A stretch of DNA of 64,000 nt, from assembly GCF_003790525.1 (NCBI RefSeq), contig NZ_CP033636.1. One strand, 5' to 3'. How positions within the stretch are numbered: the stretch's first letter is position 1; each line of letters starts with the position of its first letter. The position numbers are program-made. This DNA is from Escherichia coli. GTDB taxonomy: Bacteria; Pseudomonadota; Gammaproteobacteria; Enterobacterales; Enterobacteriaceae. This document shows positions 9,001 through 12,000 of this stretch, piece after piece.

Positions 9001-12000
9001 ATACGCCCGGATGGGCCCGATGAAAACGATAAAATGAGAAAAAGAACCCGACACATCGCTGCTCTCTGGGAAAGCCGGTCAGCAGATGGAGCGCCAGAAA
9101 CTAAATCCGCTGGTTTTAATAATGATTGAGGAGAACAAGATGAAAGATAACAAGACACGTCCTGTAGACTCGTATGCTCATGCTGATTTCATGGAGTCCG
9201 TCTTCAGCAACCTCAGGGCTTTCTGTGATGCGGAATGCCAGCGGCTAACTGCCGGTTATCCCCCAACTGTCAAACCAGAACAGCAAAGCACTGACGGCCA
9301 GCTGTCGGCGGCATAAAGCATTACCTGCCAGTTCGTTCAAATTTCTGCTTCCTTAAGCCCGGGCCAAAAGCCCGGCTCAATCCAAAAACTGAACGTACCA
9401 GTTTACCTCTATATCTCCTGAATCCCCTGCGACTTACAAGAGACCCGCACCGGTTTAGCCATTCCTGTCCTGCCACTCTCCCATCACTGGCCCAGACAAC
9501 CGGAAAAGTAACTTTTCTCTCTGAGTCACCTTCTGAACCAGTTATTTTGCTTAAACGTAAAAACGGCCCACTGTTGTGAAGATTTAAAACGGACGGATCG
9601 AGTAGTATTGCCTCAGGAAAATTTTTAAAAAAAGTTACTTTTTCTTCTCCGCAACCTATTAGGAAAAATGTCGAACCTGGTATTGTTGTGTTGTAGCGCA
9701 GTTAAACAACCAACCAAAAAAGAGAACAAAAATGTCCGCAATCGAAACTGAAGTAAAAAACAACAGCAACGAAATCAGCCTTCGTGGTTACCTGGAACGC
9801 ACTGGTAACGGTGCCCGTAAAGGCAACGGCCTTATCATTGACCCTTCGGTTGTTGTAGAGCAGGAAGGCTTTAACACCCGCACGGCCGGTATGGGCGAGC
9901 TCTACTATTCAATGCCTCACGTTGTGGAACACCTGAACAGCCTGGCCGATGCCTACATGGAAGACCCGTTCAGCGTGACGCCTATCGTTGTTCAGATGGT
10001 TAATGGCGTACCTGTACTGCGTCAGGGGGCTTGCCGTATCCGTTCCATCGCTATTGCAAACCGCCAGCTGGAAGCAGAAGGGCGTGAACGCATTACTCGT
10101 ATTCGCTGCGAAGAGTTTCGCGGTAGCGCTTCAAAAGCAGAACTCTTCACCCTGACCGGCAACTCCAACCTGGCGCTGTCTGTCGTAGCTGAAGCGCTTT
10201 CAATTAAGCGTCTGGTTGAAGATAAAGAAGAGCCTAAGACCTTTGCGGAACTGGCAAAAAAACGTGGTAAATCAGAGCAGCATCTTCGCCAGATGGTTCG
10301 CGTACTGGACCTGCCTTCTGAACTACAGACCATGCTTGTGAGCGATCAGGTGAGCATGTACGTTGCACTGGACGAGTATATGTACAGCGGTGAGGATGCG
10401 GTAGATAACATCAACAAAGCGATCTCCATCTATGGCAAGGCGACGAAAAACACGCTGAAATTCGTCAAAGCTGCCAAGGTAGAAGAGCGCATGGCAGATC
10501 CGCAGACTCCGGAAAACATCGGTGCTGAGCAACCGGCAGATGATACTACCGATAACACCCCGGTACCGGATCAACTGAACGATGAAAGCAATACGGAGAC
10601 GCTGGATACGCCACCGGTACAGGAACCGGCTCCAGCTCCAAAGGACAGCGCTCCTAAACAGAACCCGGCAGGTAAAGCACCTTCCATGTCCAGCGTTCTG
10701 AACAAAAAGACTGTGACCGTCATTGCAGACACCGCGATCCCGATTTTTGAACGTATTGCTGAAGAAGCCAAGCTTAAAGAAGGTGAATCTGTCAGTACTG
10801 ATACTTACACGCTTGTTCTGACCAATGATGAAATGAACGATATCATCAACGCTCATGCTGACCTGAAAGAGTACCTGCGTAAGCATGCTGATAAGATGAA
10901 CAAGGGACAGTCATGATTTTCTGACCGACCCCTCCATCCGGACGGGTCGGTAACTTTTTCAGGACAAGGGGAAACAGGGCAATGAAGAAGGCTGTTATCA
11001 ACGTAGACAAAACTAACCCACTGCCAGTCCTGACGGATTCGGTGACCCGGGTAAGTATTCAGTGCACGGCAAAAGATGAAAACGGGGCAGGGATCGAAGT
11101 GAATATACTCGACCTGATTCAGGATCATGATACGGCTGAAGTGAAAGTGCAGTTTGGGAGCTCGCCTGTTCAGGCTCTGGCGATGCTCCGCCGGGTTATG
11201 ACAGCACTGGAAAAGCAGGCAAACGCAGAACTGAATACAAACCACTATTCGCGTATGCAGTGATCTACTCTGGCAATTTCATCCATGCTGCCTCTGATCT
11301 GTCAATCGCGGGCGAAACCTCAGGATGAATAACGCTGATGTTAGCAGCTGGTGGAACAAACAGACTTAAATGGAAAATTGCAGTGAGTAAAACAATGCGT
11401 AACGTTGTTGCGGGTTACATTCAGCCGCTAAGCGGTTCCCGGACACTATGCTAAGCGTGGTCAGACGAAAGCTCAGCAGTATCGTCGACATGCAGGAGAC
11501 CGTCAGACAGTCCTCACAAATGCTTGAGTCTGATGCAGCCATATTCCTGAAACGCGCCATAGTTGCGAGGATGCTTCAAAAAATAAAATATCAGGATAGT
11601 GAAGTTTTAAAAGACTGCCTTGGCGATTTTTTTATTTATGAACAACGTGAAAAATTGCGCCGACTTGGCGTGATTACTAACTGGGGGATTAATAAAACAG
11701 CAGACGGGAAGAATAATAAGTTGTGATAACTCAGTAAATATTAATTTAAAAAGCGTCTTCAGAAATAGAAAAAATGCAAATTATATTGCTACGGGTTATT
11801 AGCCGCTGAGGCTGTTTACATATAATACTTCTAAACAGGAGGTATTATGAAAAAACAACTGGCGTACGCTTCAAACTGTTCTGACAGTCTTTATTCGTAT
11901 ATTTATCGCACTCTGCAAAAACGGGCTGGTGATGAGAATGAAAGCCTTTATCAGCAGGCCATTTCCCGCTGCCGTACAGCTAAACAAAAAAAGAAACTGG

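Follow-up and report, generated by a model that had tools for sequence, protein, structure and literature searches.

Here, we describe a ParB-like gene within a 64,000-nucleotide stretch of Escherichia coli DNA from contig NZ_CP033636.1 (referred to as the window), which an earlier note on the same DNA had picked out as an orphan and as more likely to encode a KorB-like regulator than a classical segregation protein. The gene, an ATG-initiated open reading frame (ORF) of 394 aa that the ORF list of the window places, as the note did, at 9732..10916 on the plus strand, sits on a multidrug-resistance IncHI2 plasmid and is part of the backbone that every IncHI-type plasmid conserves, and we favour, with moderate confidence, the reading that its product is a KorB-like global regulator acting through a 13-bp palindrome, (A)AAAGT(W)ACTTT(T), that is dispersed over this backbone. 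The choice made in the note is thus the best-supported one, KorB being the top structural match and no partition role being indicated. DNA of the ORF region is carried at 95-100% identity by ~1,000 IncHI2 plasmids, which are large, conjugative and typed as IncHI2/IncHI2A, MOBH and MPF_F, and which reside in Escherichia, Salmonella, Enterobacter and Klebsiella; in IncHI2 records the ORF is annotated 'hypothetical protein' or 'DNA-binding protein'. As a complete IncHI2 reference, almost identical to the plasmid of the window, we used pECJS-59-244 (NZ_KX084394.1), with which the window is collinear from 158.5 kb down to 112.3 kb, followed by the resistance region; the collinearity is broken by a relocated IS1 and by an IS3-family insertion.

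In the window, the 13-mer occurs 12 times with at most one mismatch, against 0.12 copies expected, and its 11-bp core, AAAGTnACTTT, is found 15 times exactly, the next most frequent palindrome having two copies; none of the cores falls in the resistance region of the window (44-64 kb). On the complete IncHI2 plasmid there are 49 exact cores where ~0.4 would be expected, none of them in its 55-kb resistance region, and across the backbone of ~188 kb this is the only strongly over-represented palindrome. The centre of the core is A or T in 43 of the 49 copies, and the flanks favour A and T as well. When the copies are set against the map of annotated coding sequences, 29 of them (59%) prove to be intergenic, compared with 19% of the backbone (p = 6e-10), and most of these lie 80-250 bp upstream of a correctly oriented start. 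Genes flanked in this way include the divergent mobI/trhR pair, the first Tra2 gene (which we take to be trhA), parM, htdT and trhF, and the palindrome is also found by Ig-like (RSP-type) genes and by genes adjoining hha and hns. The same sequence is the dominant palindrome in R27 (15 copies in 45 kb), in a Yersinia plasmid contig, in a Leclercia-type contig and in a Klebsiella IncHI1B/FIB plasmid (20 copies in 40 kb), and it is absent from IncC. The mobI/trhR intergenic region (window 26818-27521) holds two copies 485 bp apart. The origin of transfer (oriT) of IncHI/MOBH plasmids presumably adjoins mobI and, if it does, the protein that binds the palindrome is placed to act on the relaxosome or on the expression of the regulator.

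Two copies lie upstream of the ParB-like gene itself and have in common the 13-bp core AAAAGTWACTTTT. They had been described as two perfect 15-bp copies and, while each is indeed a perfect 15-bp palindrome, the two are not identical, as they differ in the central base and in the outermost pair. Copies are present upstream of each ortholog gene examined, two in IncHI2, two in R27, two in Yersinia (where the protein is 44% identical), one in the Leclercia type (50%) and six within 870 bp in Klebsiella IncHI1B (35%). When the upstream regions are aligned, conservation is confined to the proximal copy, set between flanks that cannot be aligned, and this copy keeps a position of about -90 to -110 in the R27, Yersinia and Klebsiella HI1B orthologs. 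Two copies conserved as a footprint in distant orthologs sit well with the autoregulation that the earlier note had suggested. The existence, the distribution and the conservation of these sites are matters of direct observation. On the protein side, the residues S181, E182, Q183, H184 and R186 of the predicted recognition helix are conserved, and the pattern S-x-x-H-x-R is kept wherever the palindrome is kept; the two paralogs encoded on the same plasmid differ there. Dispersed, promoter-biased palindromes match, on the DNA side, the operator pattern of KorB-type regulators, for which the ParB-like protein is the candidate binder.

A full ParB layout of four parts had been read from the sequence, and at the level of the fold this is borne out by an AlphaFold model of the 394-aa protein, built on 17 orthologs (42-97% identity), and by Foldseek. 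The model is confident at aa 17-145 and aa 150-255, and its top match in the PDB is RK2 KorB (8qa9_B; E 1e-7, target TM-score 0.66, 236 aligned columns), followed by CTP/CDP-bound ParB, Noc and Spo0J, in alignments of ~220-236 columns that cover both domains; that a ParB fold is present is a direct result. Profile searches, which the note had proposed as a check, gave a divided answer: the helix-turn-helix (HTH) at aa 149-209 matches Pfam PF17762 (HTH_ParB) above its gathering score (E 7e-6, 26.6 bits vs 22.6), while the ParBc and KorB models find no match. In NCBIfam there are only sub-threshold matches to ParB and Noc, over the HTH stretch, and by phmmer the HTH matches the DNA-binding domain of Caulobacter ParB (6s6h). 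An exhaustive profile search returned 457 relatives, and an alignment of 47 of them, here called the wider family, yields a profile that matches the N-domains of ParB proteins in the PDB with E down to 7e-14; PF08535 (Pfam KorB) is matched by ten of these 47 members. The linker contains 13 D/E, 3 K/R and 13 P in its 68 residues and varies among orthologs in both length and sequence. The C-terminal domain (~70 aa), modelled with moderate to lower confidence, carries a block conserved in the orthologs, 'SSVLNKKTVT..IADTAIP...DTYTLVLTNDEM', and is presumed, by analogy with ParB and KorB, to be the dimerisation domain. Ahead of the ParB fold (window 9771-9803, aa 14-24) there is a conserved peptide, (E/I)-S-L-R-(G/T)-Y-(L/I)-E-(R/K)-T, at the position where a canonical ParB has its ParA-activating peptide; the wider family reads N-S-L-(R/K)-A-L, and the peptide may serve to bind a partner.

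The earlier note drew attention to the sequence GACRIR at the position of GERRxR, the arginine patch of canonical ParB proteins, and profile alignment places it there: 'RdGhcRlRA' of the family profile overlays 'iaGERRlRA' in the ParB proteins of H. pylori, M. xanthus and B. subtilis. In this alignment G99 falls on the Gly, A100 takes the place of the catalytic Glu, C101 and R104 stand where the first and the third Arg would be, and R102 matches B. subtilis R80. This motif is conserved, as observed directly in the alignments: L96, R97, Q98, G99, C101, R102 and R104 are invariant in the 17 IncHI orthologs, as are F47-N-T-R50 (Box I-like) and N144 (the Box III Asn), and G99 and R102 remain invariant across the 47 members of the wider family, whose consensus is RDGHCRxRA, with His at the A100 position in most relatives. 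The phosphate-binding GxxR is therefore present but the full GERRxR is not, the Glu being replaced by Ala or His and the first Arg by Cys, and of the Box III ENxxR only the Asn is kept (G-N-S-N-L in the query, S-N-D-G-L in the wider family). What did not stand was the weight that the note gave to this divergence, as the motif is less aberrant than had been supposed. KorB, a CTPase stimulated by DNA, has GARRYR, and BisD, with GNTR, binds CTP (cytidine triphosphate) with a Kd of ~2 uM, so that a divergent arginine patch is no evidence against the binding of nucleotides. KorB cannot bind CTP without R117, nor hydrolyse it and close its clamp without N146, and the equivalents of both, R102 and N144, are among the conserved residues just listed. 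Since the protein has kept both of these residues, the arginine of GxxR and the asparagine of Box III, nucleotide gating would be expected, and from the sequence and by analogy it is plausible that the protein binds a nucleotide. The distinctive features of the pocket are the invariant Cys in place of the first Arg and the loss of both conserved glutamates, owing to which the rate of hydrolysis or the nucleotide preference may differ.

In the mechanism that we propose, the ParB-type HTH would recognise the 13-bp palindrome, and the protein would occupy the ~49 promoter-biased backbone sites, among them the two before its own gene and those at mobI/trhR, the first Tra2 gene, parM and the Ig-like genes. 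It would thereby regulate transcription across the plasmid, that of its own gene included, as KorB does on RK2. Its action would be nucleotide-gated, possibly with an altered hydrolysis rate or nucleotide preference. We infer here the binding of the site by the protein, the sign of the regulation and its dependence on nucleotide. KorB of the IncP-1 plasmid RK2 is a ParB-family, CTP-dependent sliding clamp and a global repressor (PDB 8qa8, 8qa9 and 1r71). Besides being its best structural match, KorB shares with the ParB-like protein the same order of parts (N-terminal peptide, N-terminal domain, DNA-binding domain, long flexible linker and C-terminal domain), an Ala at the 'catalytic Glu' position (GARRYR vs GACRIR) and the pair of residues equivalent to R117 and N146. 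The candidate operator is, as in KorB, a 13-bp palindrome centred on a single base, and its sites, scattered over the backbone at promoters including that of the gene itself, have a similar density. KorB operators are 13-bp palindromes, with 12 sites on 60 kb, and this count of 12 appears in the title of the corresponding reference. The differences are that the ParB-like gene is without an adjacent ParA (IncC) and that no KorA-like partner was identified; that its product is not the partition ParB of the plasmid and is not matched by the Pfam KorB models; that it has the invariant Cys and has lost the Glu and Arg of Box III; and that the operator sequence is unrelated, with 49 sites here vs 12. 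The DNA binding, CTP dependence and repression ascribed to it are putative, read from sequence and a structural model, unlike those of KorB.

The R27 plasmid, the IncHI1 prototype, carries a direct ortholog, R0104 (92,336-93,541; ~65% identity), at the same position between hok/flmA and the Tra1 genes, which was annotated in 2000 as having weak similarity to Caulobacter ParB. On R27 arrays its expression is high and constitutive, at ~2,200 units and equal at 25 and 37 C, which supports a role as a standing regulator. In an htdA mutant R0104 is up 2.6-fold and R0105, which is expressed at a low level, is derepressed 6.5-fold; as the mutation derepresses 139 of the 181 R27 genes, a plasmid-wide control layer exists. 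The genes R0106-R0109 gave no detectable array signal in vegetative R27 cells. Deletion Del7 of R27 (90,001-96,150, ~6 kb), a multi-gene deletion studied in E. coli only, removes R0104 together with the upstream sites and leaves the plasmid stable, which argues against a role in partition; among the deletions obtained in the systematic R27 series, only Del16 (incC) lowered stability. Literature searches on R0104, on IncHI with KorB/ParB-like proteins and on the palindrome sequence turned up no functional work on either R0104 or the palindrome; a deletion study of Rts1 makes no mention of a ParB-like gene, and a published paper on leading regions gives no orientation for IncHI.

The orphan status of the gene, claimed in the note from the lack of a nearby ParA or ParM, is likewise a direct observation: tblastn of the whole window gave no significant ParA or ParM match, and no deviant Walker A motif occurs in the 64 kb. 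The note had also allowed for a ParA just outside the regions it had examined; the nearest one, on NZ_KX084394.1, is ~69-70 kb away and has a ParB of its own. On that plasmid ParA/ParB (216.5-218.8 kb) and ParM with its partner (221.9-223.6 kb) lie within the Tra2 region, and the canonical IncHI2 ParB is of the P1 type (PF08775). Directly upstream of the canonical parA (~213.6-216.2 kb), in a 3.8-kb stretch without an annotated gene, there is a 2.6-kb array of ~10.5 tandem 249-bp repeats, which is likely to be the Par1 centromere. This ParB was considered as the owner of the dispersed palindrome and is unlikely to be so, being P1-type, with the 249-bp array as its own and no palindrome by parA. 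The ParA-activating motif [LFI]G[KR]G[LFI], as defined in a recent survey (PMC12704722), is found in none of the 17 orthologs and none of the 47 wider-family members, and the same survey describes orphan ParB-fold proteins without this motif as common on plasmids. The ParB-like protein stands apart from the partition machinery of the plasmid, which consists of two dedicated systems, and with these separate loci, the missing ParA motif and the stability of R27 Del7 the view that it is not a classical segregation protein is upheld.

Two paralogs are encoded elsewhere on NZ_KX084394.1, outside the window, at 195167-196330 and 199541-200596 (both on the minus strand), between the RepHI2 and RepB-type replicons. 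They are 32% and 26% identical to the ParB-like protein over the N-domain and HTH, both match Pfam HTH_ParB, and their motifs read GHCRLK and GHTRFH. The first, whose R27 counterpart R0042 ('partition protein') is induced when conditions permit conjugation, has a one-mismatch copy of the palindrome ~80 bp upstream. A search for separate palindromes belonging to the paralogs found none that is repeated. For distant members of the family, a palindrome was sought at six loci in other elements. In SXT/IncC-like elements, represented by IncC pNDM10505 and by contigs of Alcanivorax, Marinobacterium, Shewanella, Edwardsiella and Thalassolituus, a dispersed, parS-like palindrome, TTTCACATGTGAAA, occurs in 3-13 copies per 20-40 kb, with a variant, TTTAACATGTTAAA, in Thalassolituus; the Edwardsiella locus has eight regularly spaced copies, seven of them at 48-bp intervals. 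IncC and SXT-like elements carry the orphan homolog plus a separate parA-parB(KorB-domain)-HTH operon, and in every case one copy of this palindrome is found 50-60 bp ahead of parA, and in many there is one ahead of the orphan as well, so that it is not assignable to the latter. Such loci suggest that KorB-like dispersed operators are common in MOBH elements.

Several points weigh against a KorB-like role for the protein at the IncHI palindrome. The case for its binding is good but circumstantial, drawn from the comparison of sequences. Covariation between protein and DNA was looked for, and no such test is possible because every lineage has one and the same palindrome, while the identity of the proteins ranges from 100% to 35%. 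Nor does phyletic distribution tell the rival binders apart, as TrhR, TrhY and HtdA co-occur with the palindrome as consistently as the ParB-like protein does, TrhR and HtdA homologs being present in all the same plasmid groups. Among Klebsiella records, 1,141 were counted for a TrhR homolog and 744 for the ParB-like protein. The SXT/IncC-like palindrome, which lies upstream of orphan homologs and of canonical parA alike, may belong to the canonical ParB, and a site upstream of an orphan gene is therefore no proof of autoregulation. As many as 20 of the 49 sites are intragenic, and a scan of the upstream region found no sigma-70 consensus promoter next to the two upstream sites. In the Pfam search the 394-aa protein shows no match to the N-terminal ParBc domain, nor, at E <=1, to the KorB domain PF08535 or the KorB C-terminal domain. 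To these may be added the existence of the two paralogs on the same plasmid and the breadth of the htdA effect, including the rise in R0104, which would imply a plasmid-wide cis element for the circuit of HtdA.

The last of these points leads to the alternative that the palindrome is the operator of another IncHI regulator (TrhR/TrhY countered by HtdA, or a paralog) and the ParB-like gene just one member of its regulon, whose product would have some other, unrelated function on DNA; we consider this unlikely, if by no means negligible. Beyond the htdA phenotype and the shared distribution of TrhR and HtdA, it can draw on the copies that precede the trhR-annotated gene, mobI (traH in R27) and the first gene of Tra2, in operons assigned to the TrhR/TrhY-HtdA circuit, and on the precedent of the IncC/SXT-like palindrome, which lies upstream of an orphan and is plausibly bound by another protein. 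Yet no DNA-binding domain is recognisable in TrhR, TrhY or HtdA, the published account has HtdA act on the TrhR/TrhY proteins themselves, and the R operon (trhR), with a site at -87, is reported not to be HtdA-regulated. The geometry of the site, a 13-bp palindrome whose half-sites are ~6-7 bp apart, would moreover suit a ParB/KorB HTH, to judge by the KorB-operator structure 1r71, itself one of the Foldseek hits, and not classical dimeric HTH repressors, and the densest cluster at the Klebsiella locus, that of six copies, is directly upstream of the ParB-like gene.

It is improbable, in our estimate, that the protein is instead an establishment factor of the HerB/YfjB type, that is, a ParB-like clamp of a leading-region-like block that, once transferred to a new host, works on host or plasmid DNA and eases acquisition of the plasmid or counters defence. 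HerB/YfjB of F-like plasmids, a leading-region ParB-like reprogrammer of the host, does provide a precedent, being an orphan of conjugative plasmids that has an HTH besides its CTP-binding N-domain and whose gene lies among those of the establishment type, and HerB homologs occur on MOBH plasmids. The surroundings here are comparable, with a long series of small genes on one strand, hok/sok, an orphan DNA methyltransferase, PAPS-reductase-like and DUF3085/DUF957 genes beside the Tra1/relaxase region, and with R0106-R0109 silent in vegetative cells. However, HerB has four domains (652 aa, with D3 and the dimerisation module D4), an architecture of ~650 aa that is not found in this protein of 394 aa with its linker and small C-terminal domain; it is zygotically induced, whereas cells in which the plasmid is established express R0104 at a high, constitutive level; and it binds regions of the host chromosome without a sequence-specific motif, whereas a precise, conserved, plasmid-borne palindrome accompanies the ParB-like gene. 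The anti-defence role raised in the earlier note finds no support, there being no PADLOC hit, and expression of the R27 ortholog is high and constitutive in vegetative cells and not specific to entry. More improbable still is an auxiliary centromere-binding or DNA-organising protein, which would load at the dispersed palindromes and contribute to the partition or compaction of a 200-300 kb plasmid, possibly with the Par1 ParA in trans. The ParB fold, the peptide SLR(G/T)Y(L/I)E(R/K)T at the position of the ParA-interacting peptide and the clusters of sites near the RepB-type replicon in Klebsiella and IncHI2 plasmids are compatible with it; against it stand the stability of R27 Del7, the lack of the ParA-binding motif throughout the orthologs and relatives, the two partition systems already present with a separate candidate centromere array, and the association of the sites with promoters in place of the clustering of a centromere.

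The KorB-like reading, which we prefer, can be taken further, although we hold this extension only tentatively and find it doubtful on balance. The R0104 family would then be a master organiser of the plasmid, a nucleotide-gated clamp with a Cys-containing pocket that loads at the ~49 sites, slides, and silences genes or counters H-NS/Hha, and it would lie behind the derepression seen in the htdA mutant. The glutamate-less pocket would possibly be slow in hydrolysis or redox-sensitive, and it would be the clamp that determines how strongly genes for transfer, replication and maintenance are expressed.

Orphan ParB-fold regulators on mobile elements form an established class, with KorB, VirB, BisD and HerB. 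BisD of ICEclc is a ParB-like CTP clamp that activates the promoters of transfer competence with BisC, controlling transfer genes over long distances, and the protein described here resembles it as an orphan ParB-like protein on a conjugative element with a non-canonical GxxR and a long unstructured linker. BisD, by contrast, has 550 aa and a dedicated activation domain (BisDact), needs BisC and has two 23-bp bisS sites, and, judged by this description, the 394 aa, small C-terminal domain and ~49 candidate sites of the ParB-like protein argue against its membership of that group. VirB of the Shigella virulence plasmid is a ParB-like, CTP-dependent H-NS anti-silencer, an orphan plasmid regulator that binds an inverted repeat upstream of promoters. 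IncHI plasmids are likewise controlled by H-NS/Hha and encode their own H-NS and Hha, and by analogy an anti-silencing mode is conceivable for the ParB-like protein; VirB differs in not being among the Foldseek hits. It belongs to the P1-ParB lineage.

Features of the ParB-like gene, its protein and the palindrome in the window
Feature	Position	Strand	Basis or remark
Coding sequence of the 394-aa orphan ParB/KorB-fold protein, WP_001272970.1	9732..10916	+	ORF list; IncHI2 annotation; 17 orthologs
N-terminal ParB/Srx-like (CTPase-fold) domain, aa 17-145	9780..10166	+	AlphaFold (AF2) predicted local distance difference test (pLDDT) ~85-94; Foldseek; profile alignment
Phosphate-motif equivalent G99-A-C-R-I-R104	10026..10043	+	ortholog alignments; profile-to-PDB alignment
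ParB-type HTH DNA-binding domain, aa 149-209	10176..10358	+	Pfam PF17762; phmmer to 6s6h
Disordered acidic/Pro-rich linker, aa 256-323	10497..10700	+	pLDDT <50; composition; ortholog variation
C-terminal helical domain, aa 324-394	10701..10913	+	conserved block; AF2 helices 325-346, 365-390
Promoter-proximal palindrome AAAAAGTTACTTTTT, putative operator	9629..9643	.	~95 bp upstream of ATG
Distal palindrome GAAAAGTAACTTTTC, putative second operator	9503..9517	.	~220 bp upstream of ATG
Two cores, 26950-26960 and 27435-27445	26950..27445	.	divergent mobI/trhR intergenic region
Other exact cores, starts 1066, 15457, 20359, 22089, 23527, 27876	span 1066..43288	.	exact-core scan
Other exact cores, starts 30495, 38720, 40813, 41714, 43278	span 1066..43288	.	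exact-core scan
93-aa ORF, R27 R0105 ortholog	10982..11263	+	immediately 3' of the ParB-like gene, co-oriented

Around the gene, the ~1.1 kb upstream that had been described as nearly gene-free holds an annotated 76-aa ORF (9086-9316), and the 93-aa ORF noticed downstream is real, being conserved as R0105 in R27; it has no recognisable domain in a Pfam search and is possibly co-transcribed with the ParB-like gene. The IS1 copy (window 12027-12798, with the InsA/InsB ORFs at 12086-12783) lies 1.1 kb downstream of the ParB-like gene; pECJS-59-244 has no IS1 at that site, its own being ~9 kb further upstream. The second insertion relative to pECJS-59-244, of ~1.3 kb at window 31882-33188 between trhH and the gene for a TraG-N-domain protein, codes for an IS3-family transposase of 296 aa with rve and HTH_21 domains, and it is possible that the insertion splits the F operon of Tra1. 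A sok-like antisense RNA (window 5599-5753; Rfam RF01794, 34 bits, below the gathering score of 59) adjoins a hok-family toxin gene ~4 kb upstream of the ParB-like gene, and an Rfam scan of 5.5-12.1 kb found nothing besides sok. Between the ParB-like gene and Tra1, window 11300-16600 holds a series of small hypothetical genes that share one orientation and are orthologous to R27 R0106-R0114; they could form an entry-specific or otherwise tightly silenced block.

IncHI1, IncHI2 and IncHI1B plasmids are major carriers of mcr-1 and of extended-spectrum beta-lactamase (ESBL), carbapenemase and typhoid multidrug-resistance genes, and the majority of the genes on their backbones still carry no annotation beyond 'hypothetical'. 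What is known of the regulation of these plasmids is limited to H-NS/Hha and TrhR/TrhY-HtdA, the latter without a defined DNA operator. The palindrome, with ~49 promoter-biased copies and conservation across the IncHI radiation, is a concrete candidate for such an operator, and a conserved, constitutive KorB-like protein with palindromes in its own promoter is a concrete candidate for its binder. If the link between the two is true, IncHI plasmids would gain a KorB-type global control system, which would be the third or fourth case of a ParB-fold clamp used for long-range gene regulation on mobile elements, and the known CTP pockets would be joined by a natural variant that reads GxCRxR and has neither glutamate. 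Were another factor to bind the palindrome, the map of sites would still define its regulon and, should the protein prove to be the master organiser outlined above, it would offer a single target for disabling the IncHI plasmids that carry mcr-1 and ESBL genes. The main value of the finding lies in a testable 49-site regulon on clinically important plasmids, centred on a protein that was itself previously uncharacterised.

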